64,000 bases of DNA from Oceanospirillaceae bacterium (GTDB lineage Bacteria > Pseudomonadota > Gammaproteobacteria > Pseudomonadales > Balneatricaceae): positions 11,053 to 75,052 of the forward strand of contig JABSRB010000020.1 of assembly GCA_013215375.1 (NCBI GenBank), written 5' to 3'. Positions 9,002-60,383 of this stretch are shown here, in pieces. A program made the position numbers and the translations under genes. The notes under the pieces are model-generated. The model searched no databases. It saw only the letters and a program-made list of their open reading frames with translations, and was not told the DNA's origin. Every line of letters starts with the position of its first letter. Position 1 is the first letter of the stretch.

Positions 9002-9464
9002 AGCTCAGGCTCGCCGGGCTCTATATAAAATTCTTTTAGATACAGAACCTACTCGCCCAGTATCTCTACTGCTAAGCGTACTTGGCACACAAGGTGTTAT
9101 CCTCTGGCAGATAAGCCATACCCTCATCAATACTCAATTGCCAGAAAGTATAAAGCTCAGACTAGCCGAGCTTTATACTAACTTTTTAGAAACCAAACCT
9201 ACTCGTCCGGCAGCTCTTTTATGCGGATTTTCGACAGCCAAACAAACACCCGCGAGCTTTTCATTGTCTTGCAAATAAACCATAGCTTCACCAACACTCA
9301 ACTGCCAGACAAAAAAAAGCCCAGATTAACCGGGCATCATTTAAAAAATTTCTTTTAGAGACCAAATCTACTCGTCCGGCAGCTCTATTTCTATGTGTGT
9401 TTTTGGCACGCAAATACAAGTGAGAATTTCATCCTCTTGCAGATCAACCATCCCCTCATCAACA
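8981..9464. repeat. Degenerate tandem triplication (~152/164/168 nt units) of the convergent GGDEF-gene / yfaE junction
   Basis: Units start at 8981, 9133 and 9297. Each begins CTCAA[TC]TGCCAGA (the last codons of the GGDEF gene) and contains CTACTCG[TC]CC (the stop and last codons of yfaE on the minus strand). Only unit 1 holds the real GGDEF stop, and only unit 3 holds the intact yfaE end. Confidence 0.8.
9311..9335 (-). terminator. Rho-independent terminator of nrdAB-yfaE
   Basis: The minus strand reads GCCCGG-UUAAU-CUGGGC followed by a U8 run, ~33 nt after the yfaE stop. Confidence 0.7.
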
Positions 9465-9649
9465 TAACGCACCTCACCCTCTAACAGACGCACTTTACAG
9501 CAGCCGCAATAGCCGGCACGACAGTTATAAGGAGCCTGTATTTCCTGAGCCTCAAGAGAGTCCAGCAAACTGGGCTCATGCTGATAATAAAAGGTATTAT
9601 TCCCCAGCTTTATCCGGGGAATGCCTGCATTTGTTTTAGTATCACTCAA
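9368..9649 (-). CDS. yfaE: 2Fe-2S ferredoxin YfaE (class Ia RNR maintenance)
   Basis: 93 aa with CRAGYCGCC...C cysteine spacing. 4-nt overlap with the nrdB stop. Conserved nrdAB-yfaE gene order. Confidence 0.88.
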
Positions 9650-10776
9650 AAATCGAAATCATCAAAATCACCCTCTTCAAGAGAGCTGTCTATCTGACCT
9701 ACTAAGTAGGAGCTGATTTCAGACTCTTGCGGGGCCACTTGAACGTTATCACTACTGAGCCATGCATTCATCCACGGAAGCGGATTGGGACGCGCAGGGA
9801 AGATCTCATCAAAGCCTACGGCCTTTAGCCGTACATTGGTGATGTACTCAACGTAGTCGCTTAGTATTCTGGCGTTTAAGCCGATCATAGAACCTTCACG
9901 GAACAGATAATCAGCCCACTCCTTTTCCTGCTCAGCCGCCTCTGCAAACAACGCGATCGCCTCTACTTTACAAGCTTTAGCGACTTCCTTGAACTCTGCA
10001 TCATCACTGCCCGAAGCCAGCGTGTTGAGAATATTTTGGGTCCCGGTTAAATGCAGCGCTTCATCGCGGGCGATCAGCTTAATAATTTTCGCATTGCCCT
10101 CCATAATGGCGCGCTCGGCAAACGCAAACGAGCAGGCAAAACTCACGTAGAAACGAATCGCCTCCAATACATTGACCGATACCATGGTCAAATACACTTT
10201 GCACTTCAAATTCCACAACGTGCAATCATACTCCACGCCGTTAATGTTATGTTTGCCATAACCATGAACATTTTGCACACTCACTAAATGAATCAATTCA
10301 TCATACAGCCTAGTAACTGACTGGGCACGCTTGGTTATTTCAGGATTAGTGACTATCTCATCAAAGATCACCGAGGGATCGTTGACAATATTACGAATAA
10401 TATGTGTATAAGATCTTGAATGTACTGTCTCACTAAACGCCCAAGTCTCAAGCCAGGTTTCTAGCTCTGGAATAGAGACGATGGGCAAAAACGCTACGTT
10501 TGGCGAGCGCCCCTGCACTGAATCTAACAGCGTCTGGTACTTGAGGTTACTGAGGAATATATGCTTTTCATGCTCTGGCATACCGATAAAATCTTTTCTG
10601 TCAGTCGACAGATCCACCTCTTCAGGACGCCAAAAGAAAGACAACTGCTTTTCTATTAACTTTTCAAAAATGGGGTATTTTTGTCGATCGTAGCGAGCAA
10701 CGTTAACATTTTGCCCGAAAAACATCGGTTCTTTAGTAGAGTCGAACTGGTTTGCATTGAAAGTGGTGTATGCCAT
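9646..10776 (-). CDS. nrdB: Ribonucleotide-diphosphate reductase class Ia beta subunit
   Basis: 376 aa. Di-iron/tyrosyl radical motifs are present ([20 protein letters not shown]). The acidic C-terminal tail (DDFDF) is as in E. coli NrdB. Confidence 0.95.
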
Positions 10777-10856
10777 GGTTGCTGCCGAAAATCGTTAGTA
10801 AAGGAGGTATATTAAAGTGCAATCAAGAAAAAAGCCCGGAAATTCCGGGCTTAATA

Positions 10857-13127
10857 TCATAATTTACAAGCGGTGCAATCTTCTTCTGCGGTTACCTCAG
10901 AGTGGTCTTCAGAGGCGCCGTCACGGGTGTTGTGATAGTAAAGTGTCTTAACACCGTACTTGTAGGCGGTTAACAAGTCTTTTAGCAACTGCTTCATCGG
11001 CACCTTATCCCCTGGAAACTTAGTCGGGTCGTAGTTGGTGTTCGCTGAAATCGCCTGATCGACAAACTTTTGCATAATACCCACTAACTGCAGATAACCT
11101 TCGTTATTAGGCAGACTCCAGAGTAATTCATAGTTATCTTTAAGTGTCAGATACTCTGGAACGACTTGCTTTAAGATACCGTCTTTACTGGCCTTAACCG
11201 ACACAAACCCCCTAGGCGGTTCGATACCATTGGTAGAGTTAGTAATTTGCGAAGACGTTTCACAAGGCATCAAAGCCGTTAAGGTACTATTTCTCAAACC
11301 ATCTCGAACGATATCAGCACGCAATGTTTCCCAATCTAAATGTAGCGGCTCGTCGCAAAAATTATCGACATCTCGCTTATAGGTATCTATCGGTAGAACA
11401 CCTTGCGAGTACATAGTCTCGTTAAACTTAAGGCAGGGACCCGACTCTCTAGACAACTGGTTAGACGCTTTTAACAAGTGGTACTGGATAGCTTCAAACG
11501 TTCTGTGAACCAAGCCATTAGCAGAGCCATCTGAGTATTTAACGTTATTCTTCGCCAAATAATACGCCAAGTTAGTTGCACCAACACCCAGCGTACGTCG
11601 ATTTTCTGTGGCAAGCTGCGCCGCGATAATGGGATAGTTTTGATAATCCAACAAATTATCCAACGCGCGAACAATTAACTCAGACAACTCAGCAAGCTCA
11701 TCTAAGCTCTCAAGCGCTCCCAAGTTAAAGGCAGACAAAGTACAGAGCGCAATTTCGCCCTCTTCATCATTAATATGACTTAACGGCTTAGTGGGCAGCG
11801 CAATTTCTAGACATAAGTTAGACTGCCTAACCGGTGCAACTTTAGGATCAAAGGGGCTGTGGGTATTACAGTGATCAACATTTTGTATATAAATACGCCC
11901 TGTTGAGGCACGCTCTGATGCGAGCATACCAAACAATTCAGCAGCCTTGATGCGAGTTTTACGAATACTGTCATCTGCTTCATACTGCAAGTACAGACGC
12001 TCAAACTCATCCTGATCTGCAAAGAAAGCATCATAGAGGCCAGGCACTTCATGGGGACTAAACAAAGTGATGAAGCCGCCTTTTATCAGGCGCTGATACA
12101 TCAGCTTATTAAGCTGTACACCGTAATCAAGATGCCTTACCCGGTTTTCCTCAACGCCACGGTTGTTCTTAAGTACCAGCAAGGATTCTACTTCTAAGTG
12201 CCATATTGGATAAAACAACGTAGCTGCTCCACCGCGAACACCGCCTTGTGAGCAGGATTTAACAGCCGTTTGGAAATGCTTATAAAACGGGATGCATCCG
12301 GTGTGAAAAGCTTCACCACCACGAATTGGGCTACCTAACGCACGAATTCTGCCAGCGTTAATACCAATGCCCGCACGTTGCGATACATACTTAACAATGG
12401 CAGAGGAGGTTGCATTGATCGAATCTAAACTATCTCCTGTCTCAATTAAGACACAAGAACTAAATTGACGTGTAGGCGTACGCACACCGGCCATTATTGG
12501 CGTCGGTAGCGACAGCTTGAACATTGAAGTAGCATCGTAAAAACGTCGCACATAGTCTATGCGAGTATCTTTCGGATAAGAGGCAAACAAACAAGCCGCC
12601 ACTAACATGTACAAAATCTGTGGGCTTTCAAATATTTCGCCGGTGACACGGTTTTGTACCAGATACTTTCCCTCTAACTGCTTTACAGCAGCGTAAGAGA
12701 AACGCATATCACGAGAGTGATCTATATAGCTGTTTAACTGTACAAATTCTTCTTCGGTATAATCTTCGATCAAATGTTTATCATAACGCCCTTGCGCCAC
12801 CATTTTAGTGGTGTGATCAAAAAGAGTCGGAGGCTCAAATTCCCCGTATGCGCGCTTTCGAAGATGAAAGATAGCAAGACGTGCCGCCAAATACTGGTAG
12901 TCAGGGGTTTCCTCTGAAATCAAATCCGCTGCAGATTTTATTAATGTCTCATGTATATCCGCAGTTTTCATCCCTTCAAAGAATTGAATATGTGCTTTAA
13001 GTTCAACTTCAGAGGGTGAAACCTGATCTAATCCCTCGGCGGCCCAAATAACGACGCGATGGATTTTTTCAAGATCCAGTTTCTCTTGTCGACCATCCCT
13101 TTTGGTAACCATCAAATCTTGCTGCAT
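10857..13127 (-). CDS. nrdA: Ribonucleotide-diphosphate reductase class Ia alpha subunit
   Basis: Aligns by eye over almost its whole length with E. coli NrdA as remembered (LVTKRDG...KIHRV, NLCLEIALPT, C-terminal CxxCKL). The start was moved to the ATG at 13127 (MQQDLMVTKRDG) to match the E. coli N-terminus; a GGAG lies upstream. The ORF track starts 33 nt further upstream. Confidence 0.95.
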   Translation of the reverse strand: MQQDLMVTKRDGRQEKLDLEKIHRVVIWAAEGLDQVSPSEVELKAHIQFFEGMKTADIHETLIKSAADLISEETPDYQYLAARLAIFHLRKRAYGEFEPPTLFDHTTKMVAQGRYDKHLIEDYTEEEFVQLNSYIDHSRDMRFSYAAVKQLEGKYLVQNRVTGEIFESPQILYMLVAACLFASYPKDTRIDYVRRFYDATSMFKLSLPTPIMAGVRTPTRQFSSCVLIETGDSLDSINATSSAIVKYVSQRAGIGINAGRIRALGSPIRGGEAFHTGCIPFYKHFQTAVKSCSQGGVRGGAATLFYPIWHLEVESLLVLKNNRGVEENRVRHLDYGVQLNKLMYQRLIKGGFITLFSPHEVPGLYDAFFADQDEFERLYLQYEADDSIRKTRIKAAELFGMLASERASTGRIYIQNVDHCNTHSPFDPKVAPVRQSNLCLEIALPTKPLSHINDEEGEIALCTLSAFNLGALESLDELAELSELIVRALDNLLDYQNYPIIAAQLATENRRTLGVGATNLAYYLAKNNVKYSDGSANGLVHRTFEAIQYHLLKASNQLSRESGPCLKFNETMYSQGVLPIDTYKRDVDNFCDEPLHLDWETLRADIVRDGLRNSTLTALMPCETSSQITNSTNGIEPPRGFVSVKASKDGILKQVVPEYLTLKDNYELLWSLPNNEGYLQLVGIMQKFVDQAISANTNYDPTKFPGDKVPMKQLLKDLLTAYKYGVKTLYYHNTRDGASEDHSEVTAEEDCTACKL

Positions 13128-44148: not shown

Positions 44149-46893
44149 TCAGCTTACAGCCGCTGACATCAACTTATTAAGCTCTGCAACTACTCTCTCT
44201 CTTTCATTACTCTCATTCGTCGCTAAACGAAGCAAAGGCAGTGACTGCTTCTCTAAAATACTATCTTTACACTTGTCTCTCTTACTCTGCTTCTCATTCA
44301 TTGCATGAAATGAATAACCATCAACTTCAATTGCTAATACTGGCTGCTTATCAAGTTTGTTGAACAGCAAAAAATCAACATGACTATATGTATGATTGGC
44401 AAACTTACGCTGCTCAGGGTCCAGCCTTGAGAAATCATTCACGAATAGATGTAAGGGGTAATCTCTATAGTAATAAAATGAGCGGTACAACTCCAAATCA
44501 AGAATTTCATCTAGCAGTGTTGCCATTAAGTTTTCAGAGGGATATTTCGATTTATCGTTCACTTTACTTCTAAATGCATTTAATACTGTCGAATACTCCT
44601 TATACAAACAATCAAAAATGGAAATCGTTTTACTCTCGATAATACAAGGCGCTAATGTCTGGTATTCAATATGGCGGAGTAAATCACCAATATTAGAGCC
44701 TTGATTCTTCATTACGTTAGGCGAGGTAACCATCACAAATCTATTTTTAGCTCTAGAGACAGCAACATTTAATAAATTAGGCTTATCAATATATTTCTTA
44801 AGCTCATTCGCTGCAGTACTAAATATAATGCACTCTTTCTCTCTTCCTTGGAACTTATGCACGGTATCAGCTACTAGGCCAGCTGTAGTAATACGCTTTG
44901 CTGCTTCATCCGCCTGCGCTCTATAAGGCGAAATAAAACCGATGTTATCACTCGATGTTAGTTTAAGCTCCTCTGTTAATATTTCGTTATTAATGACGTC
45001 TATTTCTCTGACATTGAAATAACCGTTTCCTGTTTTGGGTTTGCGTGCATGATTTCCTTTTACCGTTTTAACAATTTTAAACGGATCTTCTTTACCAATC
45101 GTCATAACGATCAATTGACCGTTGTAATACTTTTGATTACAGAAATCTATAATTCTTGGATGACATCTATAATGCTCTTTTAGCAACGTATTTGGGATAG
45201 CTGGAAACAAGCAGATAAGCGATGATAAAAGGCTTTCTTGAAAATAGCTGTACCCTGCAGGAATACTAAACTTTGCATCAATTGAACTATTTATTTTGCT
45301 GTCAGGTATATGCGGTAATTGCTGCATATCACCGACGACAATAATATTTTTGGTACTAGACATCGTTAAAAATCCTGCTATCAAATTAACTTGTGATGCC
45401 TCATCAACAATCAGGTAATCAAATAAAGCTGCTTGATTTTTATTATTGATGATGGAGTCGGTTGTGCTCAAGACAACCGGAAAGCGCTTTAAAAAATCAT
45501 CAAAATTCTGCTTGTAATTTTTTTGAGTAAATTCAATATCCCTATGCGCCTGATATTTATCAGCAATAAAATCCTTAAATATTAAAATTGAAGATTCAGT
45601 TAGTCTCTTTAGTAGTCTATCAAAGTCATCGCTGGCTAATGATTGCTCTATAGCAGTGGTTTCATCTAATAATTCATTAGACCTTGTTTGATAATACTCG
45701 CTGATAACGCCTTTGAAAATATCATTATTCAATGATTGGAAATCACTAAATTTAAAAATTCGATATTTATATAACCACTTAAATTTCGTTTGAAAGCTTA
45801 AGTTTTCATTTTGTGATTGGTGCATAAAATCAGCCATGAAACGCAAAATATGAGGAGCCTTCCATCTATTAAAGAAAGAAAGCCCTTTCATATTGATGGG
45901 CAAAATATCAAAATGCTTATCGAAATACTTTCTCTCTAATTGCAATCGACTATAGGCTTCTTTAACAATTGCCAGTTGATTATTATGTTCCAATAATCGA
46001 GTAATTCGCTCACTGATATCCTTTAGCTCTGCTTTCAGATCTGCCAATAACTCGCGTGACAAACTCCACTTCGAAAGTTCTGGTAATTTGTACTCTGATT
46101 CAAAAAACGCTTGCTGGCGCTCTGAGCTACCCAAACTAGCGGCAATAAGGCCAATTCCCTCTTTCTCTAATTTTTCGTAAACATTAGCTACTGCAGAATT
46201 ATTACCAGCAACCACAGCAACGCTTTTTCCTTGCATAACTAAATTGGTAATAATATTAAGAATGGTCTGGGTTTTACCGGTCCCTGGTGGGCCTTGAATA
46301 AGGCTTATTTGGCTTTCTAATGCGTTAAAAACAGCTTGACGCTGGGAGGGATTAATACCGAAAGGGAACAATGGCACATCACAAAGCAGCTCGCGCTTAG
46401 ATACATCACCAGTGACTAATGCATGACCAACAGATTCAGGCTGAATGTAGCCTAGCTTATCTTTGTAATATCTAGATAAATAAGCCATTTTGGGGTTAGC
46501 CTCATCAGATAAGCGGGCTAATTCAAAATAATATTCAACTATTTTTTTAGTATCTGCTCGCTCTGTTAAATCAGTTAACAATTCAATATCAGTGATTTTT
46601 TCCAACTGTGTTGTAGATTCAGAAAATAAGCGTACATAACTACCGAACGAGATAGCAGCATCCCACTTAGCGATACTTTTACCCTTAATACGTACTAGGG
46701 CACCCTCTAATTCAAAATTGCGCGGCTGATCAAAGAACTGAACTTTAGTTTTCCCGTATCTAAAATCATTTGCTGAATTTTTAAAAGCAACTATATAATA
46801 GTCACCACTTGGGGTAATAGAACTTATAGAACGTGTCTTATCAACCCACCCACTTCCCTGTAGTGTTCTGACTAAATATTTCTTTTCATCCAT
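44149..46893 (-). CDS. SF1 (Upf1/DNA2-like, COG1112-type) helicase with unknown N-domain and C-terminal DUF2726-type PD-(D/E)xK nuclease domain
   Basis: Helicase motifs: GPPGTGKT (Walker A), LIVDEASQ, VVGDMQQLP, HYRCHPRIIDF, FQGREKECIIFS, LNVAVSRAKNRF. The C-terminal VDFLLFNK..PVLAIEVDGYSFH resembles DUF2726. The gene is AT-rich and starts 31 nt after the hsdR stop. Confidence 0.8.
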   Translation of the reverse strand: MDEKKYLVRTLQGSGWVDKTRSISSITPSGDYYIVAFKNSANDFRYGKTKVQFFDQPRNFELEGALVRIKGKSIAKWDAAISFGSYVRLFSESTTQLEKITDIELLTDLTERADTKKIVEYYFELARLSDEANPKMAYLSRYYKDKLGYIQPESVGHALVTGDVSKRELLCDVPLFPFGINPSQRQAVFNALESQISLIQGPPGTGKTQTILNIITNLVMQGKSVAVVAGNNSAVANVYEKLEKEGIGLIAASLGSSERQQAFFESEYKLPELSKWSLSRELLADLKAELKDISERITRLLEHNNQLAIVKEAYSRLQLERKYFDKHFDILPINMKGLSFFNRWKAPHILRFMADFMHQSQNENLSFQTKFKWLYKYRIFKFSDFQSLNNDIFKGVISEYYQTRSNELLDETTAIEQSLASDDFDRLLKRLTESSILIFKDFIADKYQAHRDIEFTQKNYKQNFDDFLKRFPVVLSTTDSIINNKNQAALFDYLIVDEASQVNLIAGFLTMSSTKNIIVVGDMQQLPHIPDSKINSSIDAKFSIPAGYSYFQESLLSSLICLFPAIPNTLLKEHYRCHPRIIDFCNQKYYNGQLIVMTIGKEDPFKIVKTVKGNHARKPKTGNGYFNVREIDVINNEILTEELKLTSSDNIGFISPYRAQADEAAKRITTAGLVADTVHKFQGREKECIIFSTAANELKKYIDKPNLLNVAVSRAKNRFVMVTSPNVMKNQGSNIGDLLRHIEYQTLAPCIIESKTISIFDCLYKEYSTVLNAFRSKVNDKSKYPSENLMATLLDEILDLELYRSFYYYRDYPLHLFVNDFSRLDPEQRKFANHTYSHVDFLLFNKLDKQPVLAIEVDGYSFHAMNEKQSKRDKCKDSILEKQSLPLLRLATNESNERERVVAELNKLMSAAVS

Positions 46894-51307: not shown

Positions 51308-52264
51308 TTAACTACGCTCATAACTCTTTATAATAAGCTCTTTAGTCTTTTCCAAATCAGCAATAGTACGCACGTTAACTTCAAAGTTACCTGTACCCCA
51401 GTGTCCAATATTACTGACATCTCGGCTAAACGCACTCCCTTCAGCTTTGTCACCGGGTAGTTTTAAGTAGATTTGCAACTTAGGATCTTTTTTACCTGTC
51501 ATCATCACAATAGAGGCGAAATTTTTGATACGTTTGAATGCGGTGTACAATTTTAGATCTTTACGTTGCACTTCATCTCCTAACTGCTCGGTAAAACGGC
51601 ATAGATCTTCAAATATGGAGACTAGTTCAGGTGATGCGTCAGCAAAGCGCTCAGCCTGTGATTTATCTGACCGCGATTTATCCACGCTATTTTTACTGCT
51701 GGCGATGCTGTTAATATCTGCGGGAGGAATTGTGGGTTTGCTTTTAGCTTGGTACACCATGCTTTGTGCATTCACTAACTCTAATAACAATAAGTCACCA
51801 CCAAAATAACGATATCGCATTAGCTCAATATTACGGTCAATCTGCTGTATAGCGTGCTCATCAAATTTATTATAATCCGCCGCAATGCAGATCAAGCGGG
51901 CACCCATCCACTCAATAGTATCAGCAGTCTCATTACCAAGTTTCTCCATCACCAGCAATTGAAACTCTGCTTGATGGTCTAATAACCAATCTAGGTAATA
52001 CAATCCCTGAGTAATGACATTGTCACTTTTGGCGCGTTTATATTCGATGATTACCGGGCAGCCATTTTCATCTAAACCCAACGAGTCGATGCGGCCTTTA
52101 TGAGTTTTACCGGTAGCATATTCTGTCGCCAAAAACTGTACACCTAAAAACGCTAGCATGTTAGATTCGATCTGTTTTTGTAGATCGCTTTCTAACGCGG
52201 CAAAGCTGCCGGTCAATTCTGTGAAGACCTCACCGGCTTGAGAAAATAGTTTGATATCACTCAT
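51308..52264 (-). CDS. NucS/DUF91-like PD-(D/E)xK endonuclease domain + DUF5655-like C-domain protein
   Basis: GRIDSLGLDENGCPVIIEYKR is a D..ExK motif in a NucS-like context. The C-terminal LKLYTAFKRIKNFASIV pattern resembles DUF5655. ATGA overlap with the hsdS stop. Confidence 0.65.
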   Translation of the reverse strand: MSDIKLFSQAGEVFTELTGSFAALESDLQKQIESNMLAFLGVQFLATEYATGKTHKGRIDSLGLDENGCPVIIEYKRAKSDNVITQGLYYLDWLLDHQAEFQLLVMEKLGNETADTIEWMGARLICIAADYNKFDEHAIQQIDRNIELMRYRYFGGDLLLLELVNAQSMVYQAKSKPTIPPADINSIASSKNSVDKSRSDKSQAERFADASPELVSIFEDLCRFTEQLGDEVQRKDLKLYTAFKRIKNFASIVMMTGKKDPKLQIYLKLPGDKAEGSAFSRDVSNIGHWGTGNFEVNVRTIADLEKTKELIIKSYERS

Positions 52265-53619
52265 ACGGAGGCTTCCTTGTGGTTTAATGGAACTTGGGGT
52301 AGCTCGTCTTTTGGGTTAAAGAGTCTAACGTCAATTTTGCCAGTAACTGCTGCGGAGATTAGGGCGGTTCGACGTTCTTTTAACAGCTCTACCGCAACTA
52401 GACACTCACTTAATATATTGTCGAACTTATCCCCCTGCCTTTTAATCTCATTTATGATTTCTTTTTGTTCTTCTAGGCCTGGAGGGTGAGGTATAGGTAA
52501 TTCCCCAAGAATTTGCATATTCAGCCCATCCATCGTAGAGCCCTGCGCGGAAAACAAGAGTTGGGACTGACTAACATCACAAAGAATCGAAGCTTTGACA
52601 AATTGAGGTAGTATTTTATTTTCCATAACCTTATATTTAACCAGTCGTGGATTAATAATTCCGCGCTCAATGCTTTTAGGGACAACCGCAACTTTCCCTA
52701 CAGTACCCATAACACTTATTAACACATCATTTGGGTACACCTCATATCTCCGCATTTCTTTAAACTTGGCCTCAGAAATATAATAATCACCAATTGACAA
52801 GTCATCAGCGATAACTTGTTGCTGACCATACACCCGAATCCCAGAGGCTGTATACATTGATTTTGTTAACGATGAGCCGTATGGTCCAGCTGCACTTTCA
52901 GAAACTAAATATTTGAATCTAGCAACTTCCCAATGTTCCGGCACTTCACCTAACCACTCAACACCAGAGTCGCGCATCGGTACATTAGCGTTAATACCTT
53001 TAGTGACAGCATGACTAATGACAGCTTGGCGTTTTTCTTTTAGCAGCTTGATCAACTGTTGTTGTTTTTCAATCAGGGTGTCGATTTTGGTGGTTTCGTG
53101 GTCGAGGAAACTAACAATCGAATCCAATTCACCTTCAGGGGGAAGTGCATAAACTGTTTTTAAAATATCAATACTTGAAAGGTGTTTAACAGTTGTAAAA
53201 TAAGTTAAGTCATTTACCACCTTCATATTAAAAGGAGATACATAATAGAGAAATTTTTGCAGGTTATAATCTTCAGCCCTAATACAAGCAACTCGTTGAT
53301 TTAGTGCAGCCTCACCGCCAGACCATAGAGCAACGTTGAAATCACCATCCATTCCAATTAATACGTCACCATTATTAATTAACGCCATGGATGGTATCTC
53401 GCCAACAACACCAACTTCCGTCTTAGAGGTTCTTATATCTCTAATTCTTACTAGCGGTGTGCCTTTTCCTGCTTCAAATTTTTTTGAATCAAACGGATAG
53501 CCATTTATCAAACGCGCTGTTTCTTTAATTCGTTTTCGCTCCCAATGTTTTGGGATTTCCCCCAACCACTCAACCCCAGAATCCTTATACTCAGGATATC
53601 CCACATACTTCGCACTCAT
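52261..53619 (-). CDS. hsdS: Type I R-M specificity subunit
   Basis: Two target-recognition halves, each beginning DSGVEWLGE[IV]P[KE]HWE. Each is followed by a conserved helical spacer (LIEKQQQLIKLLKEKRQAVISHAVTKGI and VELLKERRTALISAAVTGKIDV). Confidence 0.92.
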   Translation of the reverse strand: MSAKYVGYPEYKDSGVEWLGEIPKHWERKRIKETARLINGYPFDSKKFEAGKGTPLVRIRDIRTSKTEVGVVGEIPSMALINNGDVLIGMDGDFNVALWSGGEAALNQRVACIRAEDYNLQKFLYYVSPFNMKVVNDLTYFTTVKHLSSIDILKTVYALPPEGELDSIVSFLDHETTKIDTLIEKQQQLIKLLKEKRQAVISHAVTKGINANVPMRDSGVEWLGEVPEHWEVARFKYLVSESAAGPYGSSLTKSMYTASGIRVYGQQQVIADDLSIGDYYISEAKFKEMRRYEVYPNDVLISVMGTVGKVAVVPKSIERGIINPRLVKYKVMENKILPQFVKASILCDVSQSQLLFSAQGSTMDGLNMQILGELPIPHPPGLEEQKEIINEIKRQGDKFDNILSECLVAVELLKERRTALISAAVTGKIDVRLFNPKDELPQVPLNHKEASV

Positions 53620-54674
53620 AAATCACCACCCAATTCCTGCTCGATATCTGCAATACTGGGCAGTACCGATTTCAAACGTTCAGGGAGTGACTGTGTCAAC
53701 TGATACTCTGAGACACCCATAGGTTTTTGCATACCACTGAGTGCATATTCAGCGACCATCTTGTCTTTGTATTTGCACAATAAAATACCAATCGTCGGCG
53801 CATCACCGCTTGCACAGAGTTGCTCATCCACCGCTTTGATATAGAAGTTTAATTTACCGGCATGCTCTGGCTCAAAATCACCAAGTTTAAGTTCAATCAC
53901 CACATAACAATGCAGCCTGGCGTGATAGAAAAGTAAATCGATGTAAAAATCACGCTCACCCACTTTTAACGGGTATTGCCTGCCCATATAGGCGAAGCCT
54001 GCGCCGAGCTCTAATAAAAATTGGGTAATGTGATCGATTAAGCTCTGCTCTAACTCACGTTCACTAAAATCTTTACTTAAGGTTAAAAAATCAAACACAT
54101 AAGGGTCTTTCAAAGTTTGTTGCGCAAGGTCTGATTGCACTTGTGGGAGAGTGTTCGAGAAGTTACTGATCGCCTTGCCTTCACGGGCATATAAACCACT
54201 GTCGATTTGGTACGCCAATACACTGCGACTCCAGCCGTGCTCTAGCGTATTGCTCACATAATAAAGCGCTTCTGGTCTGTTTTGGCATTTATTGATGATG
54301 TGTTGATTGTGCCCCCAGGGGATGGCTTGTAATTGCGCAACAGCTTGTTGCGAAATTGCGGGCTCTGCACTCCAGTATGAATACCACTGTCTGATGAGAC
54401 CTAAATTCCGCTCAGAAAAGCCTTTTATAGTAGGGAACTCGGCGCTCAAATCTTTGCTAAGTTGTTTAAGAAAACCTGTCCCCCAAGTTGATGCTTGCTG
54501 GCGTTCAACAATGTCTTGGCCCAATTCCCAGTAGAATGCCAATAACTGACTATTCACTTGTACTGCAGCTTTAAGCTGAGTGCGCTTAAAGCGCTCTTTT
54601 AGAGTGGTTAACCACTTATTGTAGCTGCTGTCAGGTTTTGCTGATTCCAGAGGTAAGCTGATGTCATCTACCAT
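53616..54674 (-). CDS. DUF1016/YhcG-family PD-(D/E)xK nuclease-domain protein
   Basis: FYIDLLFYHARLHCYVVIELKLGDF is the core motif. The N-terminal region is DUF1016-like. ATGA overlap with hsdS and TAATG overlap with hsdM. Confidence 0.75.
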   Translation of the reverse strand: MVDDISLPLESAKPDSSYNKWLTTLKERFKRTQLKAAVQVNSQLLAFYWELGQDIVERQQASTWGTGFLKQLSKDLSAEFPTIKGFSERNLGLIRQWYSYWSAEPAISQQAVAQLQAIPWGHNQHIINKCQNRPEALYYVSNTLEHGWSRSVLAYQIDSGLYAREGKAISNFSNTLPQVQSDLAQQTLKDPYVFDFLTLSKDFSERELEQSLIDHITQFLLELGAGFAYMGRQYPLKVGERDFYIDLLFYHARLHCYVVIELKLGDFEPEHAGKLNFYIKAVDEQLCASGDAPTIGILLCKYKDKMVAEYALSGMQKPMGVSEYQLTQSLPERLKSVLPSIADIEQELGGDL

Positions 54675-57028
54675 TAGCTATGCACCTCTTGCAGTAGCTG
54701 CATGATTTGCGCGCTCACCGCATCCAAATCCGCATCAATATCCACTAAATCTCTAGGCGGTTGATACTGATAAAAATGGCGATTAAACGGAATTTCATAG
54801 CCGACAATACCCACTTGCTGATCTTTCTCATCTATTTTACTGGCATCTATCCAAGCATCCGGCACATGGGGCTGTACTTCTTTTTTAAAGTAGGCTTCGT
54901 TGAGATCGTTAACGGTTTGCGCAGGGTCAAGGGCAACGTTTTCGTTATCTCGTAAATCACCATCCGCTTTGTATTCAACGGTATTGCCTAACTCGTGATC
55001 TTCTCCAGCGAACAAACCGTACAATGGATTAGCTTCGGTATTCTTGTGGAGTTTCTTAATCACCTTTTGCGCTGCTGGATTTTTCCAGCTTACCGCTGCG
55101 CTGATTTGTTTCTTCTCTTTGGTATCCAGCGTGATGTTCTGAGCTTTACAGGCAACTTTCAGCGCCGCTTCATAGCTATTCATGTCATCGCATTGTGCAA
55201 TGCCCATCCCCTGTGGAGCAACTTGCTGGAGCAGTCTCGCTTTATCAAACATCTGCTGCTGCACAGCCCAAGTTTTGCTATCGAGCAATTCTTTAATTTT
55301 CGCTTCTTTGACTTCACTGAAATGACTCTTCAGATGTTTGCGAATATCGGCTGCATGTGTTGCCAATGCACTTTGGTAAACACTATCGCCATAAGTCTCA
55401 TACAACCATTTCATCGGTGCATTTAACGGTTTAGGTGCAAAGCGTAACTCTGCAATGCGCTCATCACTAAACTGATAGCTCTCGCGTAATGGTCGCTCGA
55501 TAGTGATGCGACGATAACCGAACTCATGGGTGTCGAATATCTTACTGGCGAAGGTTTTAGGTGCTTCAACCTTGGGATTAGCCGCTTGCCTTCCACGGCT
55601 GCTTTTGGCTTCAGCGGGCCTGTTGAGCCCCAATTTATCAAGGGTAATGGCATCAACCACTTCAAACGCACCAAAGCTGCGGGTGATGATAGCGATATCC
55701 TTAGCACTCATTTCTTTGCGCTTGCTACCTAAAGATTTACGCATTTTACCGCACAGATTAACGCCGTTAATCAATTGCACTTTACCTTTGCGCTCATCGG
55801 TTTTTTTATTCGACAGCACCCACACATAGGTCGCTATACCGGTGTTGTAAAACATATCAGTGGGCAGTGCGACGATGGTTTCTAAAAGATCCGCTTCTAA
55901 AATGTAGCGGCGAATTTCTGACTCGCCAGACCCCGCGCCACCAGTAAATAGCGGTGAGCCGTTGAGGATAATACCAATACGACCGCCCCCTTCAGATGAG
56001 TCTCTAAGCTTACTGATCAAGTGCAACAGGAATAATAACGAGCCGTCAGAGACACGTGGTAATCCCGGTCCAAAGCGCCCTTCGAAACCCTTTAGCGTTT
56101 TCTCATCTTTGATGGTTTGCTCTATTTTTTTCCAATCAACACCAAAGGGCGGGTTAGATAACATGTAATCAAATTTGTCAGCATAGAGCTGATCATTAGA
56201 TAAAGTGTTACCGAGCTTAATATTGGTGACGTCTTGTCCTTTGATCAACATATCAGCTTTACAGATTGCATAACTTTCAGGATTTAGCTCTTGGCCATAA
56301 GCGCGAATAGTGGCTTGCGGGTTCAGCTCATGCACATACTCCATCCCCGAAGAGAGAAAGCCCCCAGTACCTGCGGTAGGGTCATAAATAGTGCGAATAA
56401 TACCCGCCTTGGTCAGCGCGTCATCATCTTCCATAAACACTAAAGATGTGGTTAGCCTTACTATATCCCTTGGGGTAAAGTGCTCACCTGCGGTTTCGTT
56501 TGATCCCTCGGCAAAGCGACGTATCAACTCCTCAAAAGTTAAGCCCATGTCATGGTTGGAGATCGCTTTGGGACTTAAATCTGTTGTACGTACCTTTTGC
56601 ACCACTTTATAGAGCAAATCAGCATCGTTCAGCTGGCCAATAAACTCCGAGAAATTAAAATATTCAAATATTTGACGCGCATCTTTAGAAAAACCTTGGA
56701 TATAACTTTCAAGGTTCGACTTAATATCCGCCGCACCCAACTTAGACAGATCCATTTTCGAGGTATTAAAAAACCTTAAACCGCCAGTGGCACGTAACAG
56801 CATTTTTTCTTGCGCTTCTTCAGGAAGATTGAGCTTCTGCACCTTTTCATTCTCAGCAAGAACCTGAACTTTGGTCTCTTCTAACACCCCTTCTAATCGA
56901 CGTAATAAGGTAAAGGGCAGAATAATGCGTCCGTATTGAGATTGCTTAAAATCACCACGTAAAAGATCGGCAATAGACCAGCAAAAAGCGGCAAGATTAT
57001 TGGGCGTTGGCTGGTGGTCAAAAGTCAT
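54674..57028 (-). CDS. hsdM: Type I R-M N6-adenine DNA methyltransferase subunit (long form)
   Basis: HsdM N-domain, AdoMet motif I ([10 protein letters not shown]) and motif IV (NPPFG). About 300 extra C-terminal residues compared with ~500-aa HsdM proteins. Confidence 0.92.
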
Positions 57029-57476
57029 ATAAAAATCTCAACAAAGGTAATAAAGCACAGTAAAATCAAAGATGAATAATATAGCGTTACAGCTAAGAGT
57101 GCCATGTTAGTTTGGTAAGCGGCGGGCGCTTTGTAGGATAAAGACTAAGTTACATGCTACCCCTCTATCCTATGGTGTGTTATGTACTGATATGAAGACA
57201 ATAATCACTCAAATGGAGATACTATCTGCTTAAGTAGCAAATCTTAATCTTGCCCTTTAGTGTACTGAAAGTTTGATGTTAGTTTGTAGCATTAACACCC
57301 TTTAACACTCCCCAAAAAACTCACCACATTAAAATATAACTTATTGATATAATTGATTGGAAATACATAGTGTAAAATTAATTATTTTATTGCCAACGGC
57401 CTAGCCGACAAAATCATGACATTTGATTATCTTTGTCGCCACCCAATACAGGGCAATCGAAAATAAGGAATATGTC

Positions 57477-57608
57477 ATGACTACATTAAAAATGATCAAT
57501 GGAAACCGTCCAGAATCTAGCCATAGTGGTTCAGGTGGAAACTGGCCGAGCACAACAGGCAATCCGTCTGGTGGTGACCGAGGAAATGGACCTTCCAAGG
57601 GTAAATAA
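57477..57608 (+). CDS. Candidate 43-aa Gly/Ser/Asn/Pro-rich small protein
   Basis: ATG preceded by AAGGA with a 7-nt spacer. Peptide: MTTLKMINGNRPESSHSGSGGNWPSTTGNPSGGDRGNGPSKGK. It has no hydrophobic segment and no Cys. Coding status is unproven. Confidence 0.4.
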   Translation: MTTLKMINGNRPESSHSGSGGNWPSTTGNPSGGDRGNGPSKGK

Positions 57609-57625
57609 TTCTTAAATCAACAAAA

Positions 57626-57652
57626 CACCCGGCCTTGTATTTAGGCTGGGTG
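57626..57652 (+). other. Intercistronic stem-loop
   Basis: CACCCGGCC-9 nt-GGCTGGGTG (9 bp, one G-U pair) between the small ORF and the 747-aa ORF. No U-run follows. Confidence 0.5.
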
Positions 57653-57684
57653 CTCATTAGAGAAAAAGACAACAAGGACTTTAG

Positions 57685-59928
57685 ATGATGAAACAGGCCT
57701 GCTTCCCATTCCCAACACTCTTTGAGGTAATCAGATACGTCACTCGTATTCTGGATCTAAAAGAGTCTAATAAAAATTTAGACCAAAGAGCATTTGAGCG
57801 TGTGTTTGATCCGGAAGAATTAAATAAGGCCGTTACTACACTCTCTTTGTTAGCCTCTAAGTCAATCGGTGCTGATTTCAGCAACATAATTATAAAACAT
57901 CTTTCAAGCTCGCTCGATAAGTATGCAAAGCTTATCGCTATTACTGCTGCAGATGGGGTTAGTCGATCAAGTTTAATGCCCCATTTACTTACTACCTTTA
58001 TCAAAGATCAAATCGTACTTATTGTGAGGGATATCCATAGACTCTACGGCGGCCCAGACCCAACAATGTTGTTCAGTTTCAACTCCAGAGCGGTAGCAAC
58101 TATTTTAAATTGGATAGAAAATAATGAAAAAGGCTGGCCCTTATACTTAAGCGCATTAAGCAAGGAACAGAAAGATCGCCTATCCGCCTGGAGCCGAGGG
58201 GACGATATTCCCTCAGCGCAATCGATCTATCTTTTGCAAAGTAGCTATCAAGGCCCTAGGCCTGAAGCGATAAACTGGCAACGAGTAAGAGCACTCCTTT
58301 TTCTTGCGCGAGCAATTGATTTCTCAACAAGGAGCAATCAACTTGAGGAGGTAGTCGATGACATTAGGGCTGCTTTATGGGGTGCAGAAACGTCAGCAAA
58401 CCTGAAAGACGAAATCGCGAAACTCCAGCTTAGCTTGCAAGACAACATGCAGGATTTGATCCCCTCTATTGCTCTTTTACAGCATGAATTAATGCGTACA
58501 AACGTTAAAAAAGACCCAATGATGCTTATGCAGCATATTAAATCGGTTAAGAACGGCTTACTAAACCAAGATAAAAATACCACAATGAAGTATTGGCTAG
58601 ATTGGCATGAAGCAAGATGGCACGTTTTTTCAGGAAACTTAAAGCAGGCCAACCAGCTTTATAAAAAAGCCTTCGAAGACTCCTTATTTAGGGCAGGTAT
58701 TAACCAAAGGGAGATAATTAATGAATCTCTAGCAGTGGCAGCACGCTTAGATAAACCTGACAAGGTCTTCTTAAAGCATTTGAAATGGATGCTCATCAAC
58801 CTACAGTACGATATCCCCTCTGTTACCAGAGCTAAGTCATCAAATGTTTTTAATGACAGTGTAGAAAACTGGGAAATAGACCTTTGGAAATCTAGCTTTA
58901 TTCACACTTTCCCGAAAGCAGGCTGGTTCAAAAACACTAGATACAACTTGGCTGCCGACAGGATAGGCCCTCTAATTGACACTTCTATAGAGCAGATAAA
59001 ACCAGATTACAGACATCCTAATCGCAAGATAAAGATTGGCGATACATGGGAGAAATCCATGCCCCAACTTATATGGTTCTTGATGGTTGAAAATTTTGAG
59101 GTGGTTGAAAAACTCATAAAAAAAGGCGCTAATGTCAACGTGACATCATATGCAGGTGACACACCGATACTCATTGCTCTTGAATCTATGAATGTTATAA
59201 GTGTGCCGTTTAAGTCTTTAGATGATCGTTTTTTTCGACTAATAAGTAGCCACGAACATTCACCAGAAATCATTAATAGTCGTACACAAAAAACGCGACT
59301 ATTGCCGATCATTTCAGCGATTGAAACAGGACAATTGAATATTGTTGAAAAAGTATTAAGCCTAGGCGCTAACCCTAATTCCCGAGGCAAGACAGATGAG
59401 CAAACGGCCTTAAGTGTATGTCTTAAGTACATTGCTCAGATCAAAGATCCCACGAGAGCTAAAAAAAACCAAGAATCCATAGCAATCACCCCAGAAGCTC
59501 TAGATTCTATTCGACGATACGGCGCTGGGTTAACTGGTCACACTCTAGAACAGCAAATGAATACTTTGGCCCGTACTAACAATAACCAAGCATTCAAACA
59601 TATAAGATCTACATTAATAGACATCATTGTTGAAAGAGCTAAAAGTAAAATGCATCTCACCACAATGCGAGCCATAGCAAAATTACTTATCGAGGCAGGA
59701 GCTAACGTCAATGCTGAAAACGTTAGCCCGGTAAAAGGGTACACACCATTAATGCATGCAGCCGAAATTGATGAAATAGATCTTTTTAAACTCATGCTTA
59801 AAAAAGGCGGCGATCCTGTAAAATCCTACATTGACATAAAAACTCAAAGAGATGTTAACTGCAGGGACATTTCAACATACTTCGAATCAACACAAGTGAT
59901 GCATGAGCTTCAGACAATACAGCGCTAA
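57685..59928 (+). CDS. Uncharacterised 747-aa protein: unknown helical N-region with XRE-HTH-like and TPR-like segments, C-terminal ankyrin repeats
   Basis: AAGGA SD. ANK repeats are visible at VVEKLIKKGANVNV..GDTPILIA, IVEKVLSLGANPNSRG..TALSV and IAKLLIEAGANVNAEN..GYTPLMHAAE..LFKLMLKKGGDP. The segment RLSAWSRGDDIPSAQSIYLL resembles the XRE-HTH helix 3 region. AT-rich. Confidence 0.7.
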   Translation: MMKQACFPFPTLFEVIRYVTRILDLKESNKNLDQRAFERVFDPEELNKAVTTLSLLASKSIGADFSNIIIKHLSSSLDKYAKLIAITAADGVSRSSLMPHLLTTFIKDQIVLIVRDIHRLYGGPDPTMLFSFNSRAVATILNWIENNEKGWPLYLSALSKEQKDRLSAWSRGDDIPSAQSIYLLQSSYQGPRPEAINWQRVRALLFLARAIDFSTRSNQLEEVVDDIRAALWGAETSANLKDEIAKLQLSLQDNMQDLIPSIALLQHELMRTNVKKDPMMLMQHIKSVKNGLLNQDKNTTMKYWLDWHEARWHVFSGNLKQANQLYKKAFEDSLFRAGINQREIINESLAVAARLDKPDKVFLKHLKWMLINLQYDIPSVTRAKSSNVFNDSVENWEIDLWKSSFIHTFPKAGWFKNTRYNLAADRIGPLIDTSIEQIKPDYRHPNRKIKIGDTWEKSMPQLIWFLMVENFEVVEKLIKKGANVNVTSYAGDTPILIALESMNVISVPFKSLDDRFFRLISSHEHSPEIINSRTQKTRLLPIISAIETGQLNIVEKVLSLGANPNSRGKTDEQTALSVCLKYIAQIKDPTRAKKNQESIAITPEALDSIRRYGAGLTGHTLEQQMNTLARTNNNQAFKHIRSTLIDIIVERAKSKMHLTTMRAIAKLLIEAGANVNAENVSPVKGYTPLMHAAEIDEIDLFKLMLKKGGDPVKSYIDIKTQRDVNCRDISTYFESTQVMHELQTIQR

Positions 59929-60102
59929 TTTCACAAAATAAAAGGCAGTATCTTTGTGAATATCCTTATGACAAGCTCAGCTCAGATTTACAGTTTTTAA
60001 TCCTTAGCTGATGTCTCATATATTTTTACTTTTTCCAGTTAAATCACCCAGAATATTAGTAATCAGCTACGAAGCCACCAACCCCTTGGATTACCGCCGG
60101 AG

Positions 60103-60200
60103 CAATTATCTAAATTGGCGAAGCGGAGCGACAGGACGTCGCGAAGAGCGAAGCTAGGCCATGGACGGCCTATCTGAGCGGCCGCCAATTTAGATAATTG
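60103..60200. repeat. 98-nt palindromic element: perfect 18-bp inverted repeat enclosing two short hairpins
   Basis: CAATTATCTAAATTGGCG (60103-60120) pairs with CGCCAATTTAGATAATTG (60183-60200). Inner hairpins: GCGAC-aggac-GTCGC (60128-60142) and TAGGCC-atggac-GGCCTA (60155-60172). Confidence 0.85.
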
Positions 60201-60383
60201 TGGAGGGATCTTTCGGGAATCGTTGGGCGAAATTTTCTTTGGTTCCGTTTCTTTTTTTCGTAAAAAGAAATGAACTCGACGCAGTCGAAACTGCACTTGA
60301 AACGGATTTTAGTTTTAGTTTTATAAGATACAAAGTTGACCACAAAAATCACTCTCTCTTAACGACAACAATGAGCCTAATCC

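Follow-up and report, generated by a model that had tools for sequence, protein, structure and literature searches.

A small disordered protein paired with a large ankyrin-repeat protein beside a restriction-modification island: a putative reduced form of a three-gene cassette of Proteobacteria

What does a disordered protein of 43 amino acids (aa) do in front of a 747-aa protein with ankyrin repeats, and do the two belong together? The question is raised by a locus in a 64,000-nucleotide stretch of DNA from an Oceanospirillaceae bacterium (positions 11,053 to 75,052 of contig JABSRB010000020.1; this whole stretch is hereafter called the window), where a short open reading frame (ORF), here gene 1, precedes a long one, here the large gene, at the border of a type I restriction-modification (R-M) island. 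The initial annotation, made from the letters of the window, took the two genes for an orphan module. Comparison with homologous loci shows that the small ORF is a real gene, co-inherited with the large protein and under purifying selection. Judging from gene content, what had been taken for an orphan is a mobile three-gene cassette of Proteobacteria that has been reduced to two genes in the window, where a HicA-like gene is absent. The parts of the locus are the following:

57371..57409, + strand: promoter-proximal box, conserved at homologous loci
57415..57479, + strand: structured 5′ leader (RNAfold, covariation)
57477..57608, + strand: gene 1 (43-aa ORF), with ATG at 57477 and AAGGAA 7 nucleotides 5′ of the ATG
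57626-57652, + strand: intercistronic stem-loop (RNAfold)
57685..59928, + strand: large gene (747-aa ORF), with AAGGA upstream
57685..59079, + strand: N-terminal all-alpha domain of the large protein (N-domain), residues 1 to about 465 (AlphaFold)
59080..59928, + strand: C-terminal ankyrin domain of the large protein, residues about 466-747 (Pfam, Foldseek)

The small first gene and the three-gene cassette

The ORFs, the Shine-Dalgarno signals and the stem-loop that the initial annotation had placed here were all found, and the two genes are separated by a gap of 76 nucleotides which contains the stem-loop. Gene 1 was compared with its counterpart in the nearest relative of the locus (L081, a JGI metagenome contig, 67% identity). 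The differences at codon positions 1, 2 and 3 number 4, 3 and 16, and the nonsynonymous and synonymous divergences (dN and dS) are 0.10 and 0.67, with a dN/dS ratio of about 0.15; the two other reading frames are interrupted by stops. For the large gene, the same comparison gives a dN of 0.22, a dS of about 1.6 and a ratio of about 0.14. The encoded small protein is basic and Gly/Ser/Asn/Pro-rich, of the type "GGNWPSTTG..SGG.RGN..KGK", and has neither a signal sequence nor a hydrophobic segment. Among 20 orthologues, residues N22, W23, P24, S31 and R35 are invariant, and conservation extends from an RG..SSH segment through the C-terminal basic tail, with its peak at the central NWPSTT motif.

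Reading upstream of the large gene in 80 retrieved loci revealed a family of first genes of 40-57 aa and of two types. The window type follows the pattern ...RGPSSHPGxGGNWPSTTGxxSGGGRGNAPxKGK, while the second, found in more distant relatives, resembles SMP/LEA proteins (...AAARIQSxxAKANGGQVxxGSFAARAQSAAA...). Two such SMP-type products of distant relatives score 25.4 and 27.6 bits against Pfam SMP (PF04927), whose gathering score of 22 bits is not reached by gene 1 of the window type. At locus L018 both motif types are fused in one product, and all variants are small, hydrophilic, Gly-rich and disordered. For 67 species loci with an intact large ORF, a hidden Markov model search of the upstream regions found gene 1 of either type at 65, the window type at 21 and the SMP type at 45, one locus having both. 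The association of the small ORF with the large protein, put forward in the initial annotation, is thus borne out by co-occurrence as well as by selection at the amino acid level.

Gene 1 of the window has no Pfam match at E ≤1 and belongs to no NCBIfam or PADLOC family, and a window-type peptide from locus L007 has no Pfam match at E ≤10. A profile built from 20 window-type peptides matches 573 protein clusters; the best-scoring 120 of these carry no precomputed Pfam domain and no name beyond "hypothetical protein". The true 43-aa sequence is missing from a collection of 15 billion proteins. On the identical ENA and Logan contigs (L082, L083), the public annotation has instead a 38-aa ORF in the wrong frame (57499-57615, + strand).

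In its usual form the cassette consists of three genes on the same strand, namely gene 1 (40-57 aa), gene 2 (about 70 aa, HicA-like) and gene 3, which corresponds to the large gene and encodes a cytoplasmic protein of about 750 aa. Gene 2 ranges from about 66 to 75 aa, and the large gene starts immediately behind its stop codon or overlaps with it. Residues K8, H30, G38, P47, S48, D49 and N55 are invariant, H30 standing after a basic pair. In Pfam, 11 of 35 members match HicA_toxin (PF07927) best, at E ≤1, the lowest E being 2.7e-4. As a single-sequence query gene 2 returned 2 matches, a yield limited by the word prefilter. Gene 2 is present at 63 of the 67 intact loci; two loci have gene 1 only and two have neither small gene. 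When five gene 2 sequences were searched by tblastn over the whole window, nothing better than E 0.08 was obtained. L081 has a layout identical to that of the window and likewise lacks gene 2, so that the loss of this gene likely predates the split between the two. Since both remaining genes are under purifying selection in lineages without gene 2, the pair formed by the peptide and the N-domain would work on its own. The view of the locus as an orphan two-gene module is accordingly replaced by that of a reduced form, as far as gene content can tell.

The large protein and the regulatory anatomy of the locus

The only Pfam matches in the large protein are ankyrin repeats, at residues 469-499, 525-576 and 662-711, in agreement with the at least three repeats recognised in the initial annotation. 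The E-values are 5e-13 for Ank and 2e-12 for Ank_2, and Ank_4 and Ank_5 also match. The scores, with gathering scores in brackets, are 48.8 bits (21.1) for Ank, 48.1 (27.3) for Ank_2, 30.8 (22.7) for Ank_4 and 28.5 (22.3) for Ank_3; gathering scores being exceeded, the protein belongs to the Ank clan. The ankyrin domain carries a helical insert at about 575-655. An AlphaFold model of the full-length protein (predicted local distance difference test, pLDDT, 89.9; predicted template modelling score, pTM, 0.87) consists of the all-alpha N-domain, a small beta-hairpin at 448-460 and the ankyrin repeats, and a Foldseek search of the Protein Data Bank (PDB) with this model returned ankyrin and DARPin structures exclusively (E 1e-8 to 1e-6). 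Weak NCBIfam matches to the Dot/Icm proteins AnkG, AnkH and AnkY concern the ankyrin repeats only and score 31 bits, against cut-offs of 500-600.

The N-domain, on the other hand, has no detectable relative by sequence or by fold; the initial annotation had likewise recognised no family in most of this helical region. Profile searches of Pfam, NCBIfam and PDB sequences gave no family match. Modelled alone using truncated database proteins, it reaches a pLDDT of 82.5, and Foldseek against the PDB found nothing significant (best E 0.8, template modelling score ≤0.21); the insignificant list, with E above 0.8, contains generic TPR and ARM solenoids and includes AimR and MalT domain III. Three motifs are conserved: PYPTxxExxR, RISAWxRGxxLPSxQSI and YWxDWHEARWxVFSGxLxxAxxLYKxAFExxLYRAG. 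The second is the best conserved, and to it belongs the stretch in which an XRE-type helix-turn-helix (HTH) had been suspected. Its resemblance to XRE domains is limited to the local motif: hhalign gives a probability of 6.7% over 27 columns (family residues 136-196) with a set of seven XRE domains, two of which were constructed to fit the family consensus, and Pfam finds no HTH in the large protein. From the TPR-like helices also proposed there remains a single weak helical hairpin, a 17-residue stretch with E 0.07 to consensus TPR proteins; Pfam finds no TPR match in the large protein.

The region upstream of gene 1 contains two conserved elements. The first is a box (TGTAAAA...ATTTTATTGCCAACGGCCTAGCCGAC, 57371-57409) which is found about 70-95 nucleotides 5′ of the gene 1 ATG at loci of Gamma-, Beta- and Alphaproteobacteria (L001-L081). 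Its consensus across the classes is an A/T-rich portion followed by TTTTT-N2-3-GCCA-N3-GCS-N2-3-GCnGAC, and no palindrome is obvious in it. The sequence TTGCCA-16-AATCAT at 57390-57417 weakly resembles a sigma-70 promoter. Readings of the box as a sigma-70, sigma-54, sigma-28, sigma-32 or extracytoplasmic function (ECF) sigma factor promoter were rejected, its spacing, judged by eye, fitting none of them. The box could serve as an operator, or it may represent an unusual promoter.

The second element is the leader. In the predicted structure, CAUGACAU (57415-57422) pairs with AUGUCAUG (57472-57479), so that the start codon is included in the helix, which encloses a conserved hairpin, CCC-AAUACA-GGG, at 57442-57453. 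The hairpin lies about 25-30 nucleotides 5′ of the Shine-Dalgarno sequence, and its version in Betaproteobacteria is GUUGCC...GGCAAC. RNAfold assigns -22.2 kcal/mol to the segment 57375-57485 (z -2.1), and the leader of L081 has a compensatory pair, GUCAUUG/CAAUGAC. RNAalifold predicted no structure for the mixed leader alignment; the hairpin was defined manually and then tested by pair counts. Over 43 loci, 74.5% of the cells are paired, compared with 54% after shuffling and 26-43% with slid partners; double changes number 53 versus 21, and none of 500 shuffles reaches the observed level. The paired probability of positions -14 to +3 is 0.76 in the window, as compared with 0.51 when the upstream sequence is shuffled (1/60). 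Family-wide (47 loci), the effect is modest (0.56 versus 0.48; Wilcoxon p 4e-4). A scan of the leaders of the window and L044 found no Rfam family.

The stem-loop between the two genes, already seen in the initial annotation, is G+C-rich and comprises 10 pairs in RNAfold, including one G-U; between the window and L081 it shows one compensatory change, C-G to T-A. A strong G+C-rich hairpin of 8-13 base pairs follows gene 1 in essentially every locus, its sequence not being conserved. In the window, no T-run is found 3′ of the stem-loop, which was not called by the terminator scan. The hairpin may act as a partial terminator or stabilise the mRNA, either of which would maintain an excess of the small protein. 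Translation of gene 1 would be gated by the leader, and more of the small protein would be made than of the products encoded downstream.

Distribution and genomic contexts

The window protein is identical to one in an Oceanospirillaceae metagenome-assembled genome. At least 145 full-length relatives with 36-67% identity come from marine Gammaproteobacteria and Desulfuromonas, and further relatives (24-28% identity) from Beta- and Alphaproteobacteria, which brings the distribution to at least three classes. With one genome per species, 119 relatives were found among 185,579 species, that is about 0.06%. The hosts are mainly free-living marine, freshwater and wastewater Proteobacteria, and some are animal-associated (Aliivibrio fischeri, Endozoicomonas). 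A profile of the N-terminal 466 residues matches 398 representative proteins out of 1.84 billion searched. The best 150 of these 398 are almost all 700-790 aa long, which indicates that the architecture of N-domain plus ankyrin repeats is fixed. Protein searches found no match in a phage collection and one weak match in a plasmid collection, on a megaplasmid predicted to be non-mobilizable. The public names are "hypothetical protein" and "ankyrin repeat domain-containing protein".

There is no fixed large neighbour, the largest neighbour cluster occurring at 11 of 80 loci. In raw counts, recurrent neighbours are a P4-type integrase (11 loci), RadC (8), YagK/YfjJ (6), HsdM (6) and DUF2787 (5); 20 of the 80 species loci have an integrase, RadC, YfjJ, DUF2787 or HsdM within 7 kb, and HsdM is the commonest family among the downstream neighbours. 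Single loci adjoin BrxL, GajA, MzaC, GmrSD, Fic, a C5 methylase or transposases, and in several cases frameshifts interrupt the copy, or transposases or insertion sequence elements lie next to it. An association with defence and mobile islands recurs in independent lineages, which bears out the defence setting noted in the initial annotation.

Genomic contexts were looked up for eight of the 573 clusters matched by the peptide profile. The canonical trio (43 + 73 + 754 aa) was found in Pseudomonas sp. C27 and in a metagenome contig. One of these two copies adjoins GmrSD, RhuM, an SNF2-PLD helicase, RadC and a transposase, and the other a resolvase and an AAA_15/21 ATPase; given these different neighbours, the same identical peptide occurs in two contexts. 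In Alcanivorax the trio stands beside a Tn7-like TnsA/TniB/TniQ element and an Xre-MbcA antitoxin. In addition, when gene 2 served as tblastn query against the plasmid collection, a trio was located on an Acinetobacter soli plasmid, beside an IS3 transposase and HNH/DUF262 genes. The same query led to the Sulfitobacter and Neisseria loci described below.

Other peptides are followed by proteins without ankyrin repeats. In Vibrio alginolyticus, a 41-aa peptide, an acidic 49-aa mini-protein with a CxxC...CxxC pattern and a 527-aa ankyrin-less protein belong to an element at mnmE, where they have a DUF927 primase/HTH_17 on one side and the integrase on the other. In another Vibrio sp., a 40-aa peptide is paired with a 541-aa ankyrin-less protein, 3′ of two DUF2787 genes, RadC and AlpA, and 5′ of BrxR. 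Both large proteins are homologues of the N-domain (hhalign 95.6%, E 1.3e-8 for the 527-aa protein; 98.2%, E 2.8e-14 for the 541-aa protein). Peptides of the same type thus also precede homologues devoid of ankyrin repeats, so that the peptide has no obligatory partner in the ankyrin domain; its partner would be the N-domain, to which it may bind physically. In Litorimonas the peptide occurs by itself, flanked by integrases and R-M genes. In Proteus a 40-aa peptide is followed by a 388-aa protein that is not significantly related to the N-domain and was dismissed as a relative, and the DNA of this variant found no match among E. coli genomes. The peptide match on a Cronobacter IncFII plasmid has no partner gene and may be spurious.

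A few further observations concern the parts of the cassette in other settings. In three Vibrio spp. (L095, L096 and L097, at about 7900-12100), a BrxR (WYL) gene comes directly after the pair of peptide and 541-aa protein, and the cargo behind it differs per strain: SRA-HNH plus NUDIX, CoiA-like plus SLFN helicase, or MksB/E/F. This region looks like a defence hotspot with swapping cargo. In some variants, at L089 (5150-5299) and L015 (-422 to -246 relative to the large gene), a Cys-rich mini-ORF (CxxC...CxxC, acidic tail) separates gene 1 from the next gene; that of Vibrio alginolyticus occupies the place of the HicA-like gene. On the conjugative plasmid NZ_CP025811.1 of Sulfitobacter sp. 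SK025 (L098, 5001-5183), an unannotated gene 2-like ORF begins where a viperin-family radical SAM gene ends. Because it follows the viperin gene directly, the HicA-like protein may be a module shared between defence genes. Finally, in Neisseria gonorrhoeae NZ_CP119142.1 (L099, 5001-6118) related parts are arranged differently: a gene 2-like ORF of 66 aa comes first, a G/N/Q-rich basic ORF of about 51 aa second and third a protein of 228 aa that contains an XRE-type HTH (hhalign 86.6%) and whose VVSAWSKGEKLGTEQQL aligns with RISAWxRGxxLPSxQSI, insignificantly (hhalign 2.6%). The exact sequence of this gene 2-like protein is found in about 500 contigs, the named members of its cluster being mostly N. 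gonorrhoeae, and it is publicly mis-named phosphoribosylglycinamide formyltransferase.

As for the window itself, the copy abuts an island that contains a type I R-M system, YhcG/DUF1016, DUF5655 and a superfamily 1 (SF1) helicase with DUF2726. The neighbouring features are:

54674..57028, - strand: hsdM of the type I R-M island, divergent from the pair
60087-60213, + strand: TwoAYGGAY RNA (Rfam RF01731), between the cassette and acpH
44149-46893, - strand: feature of the R-M island
51308-52264, - strand: feature of the R-M island
53616-54674, - strand: feature of the R-M island

In this island the SF1 helicase (AAA_11/AAA_12) is fused to DUF2726, a DUF5655 protein is also present, and a gene for a YhcG/DUF1016 PDDEXK nuclease lies between hsdS and hsdM. 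The divergent orientation of the pair and hsdM had been correctly read in the initial annotation. Its structured non-coding element downstream proved to be the TwoAYGGAY RNA (55.3 bits in the Rfam scan, gathering score 43). No such RNA was found next to the cassette at nine other loci; it is therefore regarded as an unrelated neighbour. The G+C content of the pair, estimated earlier at about one-third, measures 0.38-0.43, as compared with 0.44-0.47 in the flanks.

Possible function of the cassette

The comparison with catalogued defence proteins shows that the cassette is not entirely without precedent. The PADLOC-DB v2.0.0 model "HicA-like" (PDLC02910, 61 positions) matches gene 2 end to end (E 8e-27 and 5e-26 for L001 and L055). 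The model "Ankyrin" (PDLC02908, 880 positions) gives a weak match over 55 residues at the ankyrin end of the window protein (E 2.8e-4) and another in the N-terminal part of the ankyrin-less Vibrio relative (E 4.5e-5), for which reason it may represent a distant relative with the same layout of N-domain plus ankyrin repeats. Given these matches, a relative of the three-gene form is already catalogued among "known and candidate" defence proteins, and the earlier statement that no described system has this composition was too strong. The window differs from this entry in that the HicA-like gene is absent and the match to the Ankyrin model is weak; neither type of gene 1 is matched by PADLOC models.

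With somewhat less than even confidence, we favour a reading of the cassette as a mobile-element conflict module, probably one of defence; anti-phage or anti-plasmid defence would be more probable than counter-defence. According to this reading, the helical N-domain of the large protein would serve as sensor or scaffold, and the small disordered protein would be its direct partner, acting in the manner of an antitoxin as a labile inhibitor or bait, and kept in excess by the hairpin that protects the first cistron. The HicA-like protein, with its predicted RNase fold, would be the effector in complete cassettes, and the ankyrin domain an optional binding module. In the window copy, which has no gene 2, the output could be provided by the ankyrin domain, which would bind or sequester a protein.

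Several observations weigh against this reading. The window copy lacks gene 2, the sole candidate effector, and no catalytic domain is recognisable in the large protein, which thus offers no effector domain. Gene 2 itself never reaches the Pfam HicA gathering score of 27 bits (one member, scanned by itself, scores 15.8 bits), and its profile has no sequence match among solved HicA structures. The neighbour counts are raw ones, and many loci stand beside housekeeping genes (gcvP/gcvH, transketolase, pgk). At the three Vibrio loci the pair is constant in a backbone with AlpA, RadC and DUF2787 and it is the cargo that varies, which fits a gene for maintenance or establishment of the element as well as it fits defence. 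The SMP-type first gene, scoring above the threshold of a plant desiccation family, points to stress protection. Furthermore, in the literature covered (PADLOC 2021 and 2022, the retron classification, UG/Abi and a paper on P2/P4 hotspots), no source or system name of PDLC02908 or PDLC02910 was found, nor any description of an ankyrin/HicA-like system.

An alternative reading, which we consider unlikely, is that of a regulatory switch of the mobile element. The large protein would then be a DNA-binding regulator with a cryptic HTH at about 143-185 and a helical sensor domain, the small protein its intracellular co-regulator, and the pair would autoregulate through the conserved upstream box, which could be an operator, and control excision, establishment or cargo genes. 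In this sense, RISAWxRGxxLPSxQSI aligns with the recognition-helix end of XRE HTH domains and with VVSAWSKGEKLGTEQQL of the Neisseria XRE-HTH protein, near which gene 2-like and G/N-rich ORFs lie; the Vibrio pair comes directly after AlpA in a conserved island backbone; and AimR is among the insignificant Foldseek matches. However, the hhalign probabilities for an HTH are only 6.7% with the XRE set and 2.6% with the Neisseria protein, Pfam finds none, the model of the N-domain has no significant structural match to HTH or TPR regulators, and the box is not obviously palindromic. Moreover, the HicA-like gene and the ankyrin domain would be left unexplained. The constancy of the pair next to varying defence cargo at the three Vibrio loci would suit a counter-defence or establishment factor of integrative elements, which might, for instance, sequester a host defence protein on its ankyrin or helical surface. 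The pair recurs beside RadC, two copies of DUF2787, YfjJ/YagK and AlpA, gene sets of the kind found in cryptic-prophage-like islands that carry anti-restriction genes, and type I R-M genes are often adjacent. Counter-defence genes, however, are usually common on phages and plasmids, and here the phage collection yielded no match and the plasmid collection one, on a megaplasmid predicted to be non-mobilizable. The peptide is basic and not an acidic DNA mimic, and the gene 2 family is listed by PADLOC among defence or candidate-defence proteins. We regard such a role as distinctly improbable.

A stress-protection operon seems quite unlikely as well. Here the small protein would be a LEA-like hydrophilin, produced in large amounts once temperature, osmotic or desiccation stress opens the leader, with the ankyrin and HicA-like proteins as accessory chaperone or RNA-binding factors. 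The SMP-type first genes, at 25-28 bits against a gathering score of 22, speak for it, as do the small, Gly-rich, hydrophilic and disordered nature of every gene 1 variant, a leader that, like an RNA thermometer, occludes the start codon, the hairpin 3′ of gene 1, which favours an excess of the small protein, and the many marine or environmental hosts. A rare and patchy distribution in mobile and defence islands is nevertheless not that of a stress regulon. The window type of peptide has no SMP match, the leader matches no thermometer family in Rfam, the family-wide occlusion is modest (0.56 versus 0.48), and the coupling to a 750-aa scaffold and a HicA-like protein would not be accounted for. 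As to the ankyrin repeats, weak NCBIfam matches to AnkG, AnkH and AnkY and the animal-associated habit of some hosts might suggest an effector directed at eukaryotes and secreted like the Ank proteins of Legionella and Coxiella, next to which the small ORF would be incidental. This explanation, already disfavoured, is highly improbable: the matches score 31 bits against cut-offs of 500-600, the hosts are mainly free-living, both small genes are strictly conserved, and the ankyrin-less homologues retain the peptide.

The conflict module that we favour resembles several known systems without coinciding with any of them. With type II toxin-antitoxin (TA) systems of the HicAB kind, the cassette shares a gene of about 70 aa with HicA_toxin as top Pfam family and an invariant His; it differs in having no HicB-like partner and in that gene 2, absent from the window, stands between the genes for a disordered mini-protein and for a scaffold protein of 750 aa. 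Toxin-antitoxin-chaperone (TAC) systems likewise have three co-transcribed genes and a disordered small protein expected in excess, and TAC and type II TA systems also have in common with the cassette a small putative RNase, a large non-enzymatic binding protein and mobile islands as hosts. On the other hand, the cassette is unrelated by sequence or fold to SecB-like chaperones, HigBA and MqsRA, no DNA-binding antitoxin domain is present, and the pair persists without the putative toxin. The RRNPP/arbitrium pair AimR-AimP of Firmicutes and phages is similar in placing a tiny ORF beside a large helical repeat protein on mobile elements. Yet the cassette peptide has no export signal, and is conserved along most of its length, the peak not falling in a short C-terminal mature peptide; no HTH or TPR family is detected, the hosts are Gram-negative, and the peptide gene comes first. 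The peptide-receptor analogy of the initial annotation, taken in the RRNPP sense, does not stand for these reasons: there is no signal or hydrophobic segment and no HTH or TPR family. Plant SMP/LEA D-34 proteins (PF04927) and bacterial hydrophilins, for instance those of Acinetobacter baumannii, resemble the first genes in being small, hydrophilic, Gly-rich and disordered; the SMP type of first gene exceeds the PF04927 threshold, whereas the "GGNWPSTTG" type of the window has no match. No hydrophilin that is linked with mobile islands or has an ankyrin or HicA-like partner is known to us.

The apparently new elements are the first gene missed by gene callers, the N-domain as core partner, the architecture of leader and hairpin, and the two-gene variant. 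More cautiously still, we propose that the N-domain and its upstream mini-protein might form an unrecognised class of intracellular small-protein/receptor conflict systems on Gram-negative mobile elements, whose first gene would have been systematically missed or mis-framed. The leader would then be a new conserved riboregulatory element, and this common core could be combined with ankyrin, HicA-like or zinc-ribbon-like parts, which would be exchangeable for one another as outputs or adaptors.

As a defence or conflict system, if it is one, the cassette would be out of the ordinary. Its form in the window has no recognisable enzyme and consists of a 43-aa disordered protein, a helical domain without detectable relatives and ankyrin repeats, which are rare in bacterial immunity; its real core would be the mini-protein together with the helical domain. 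The questions that it raises are of what use the mini-protein is to the scaffold, whether the HicA-like partner is the effector, and what the leader senses. If it is not a defence system, the cassette would still be a widespread mobile module of Proteobacteria, carried by about 0.06% of species genomes in at least three classes.

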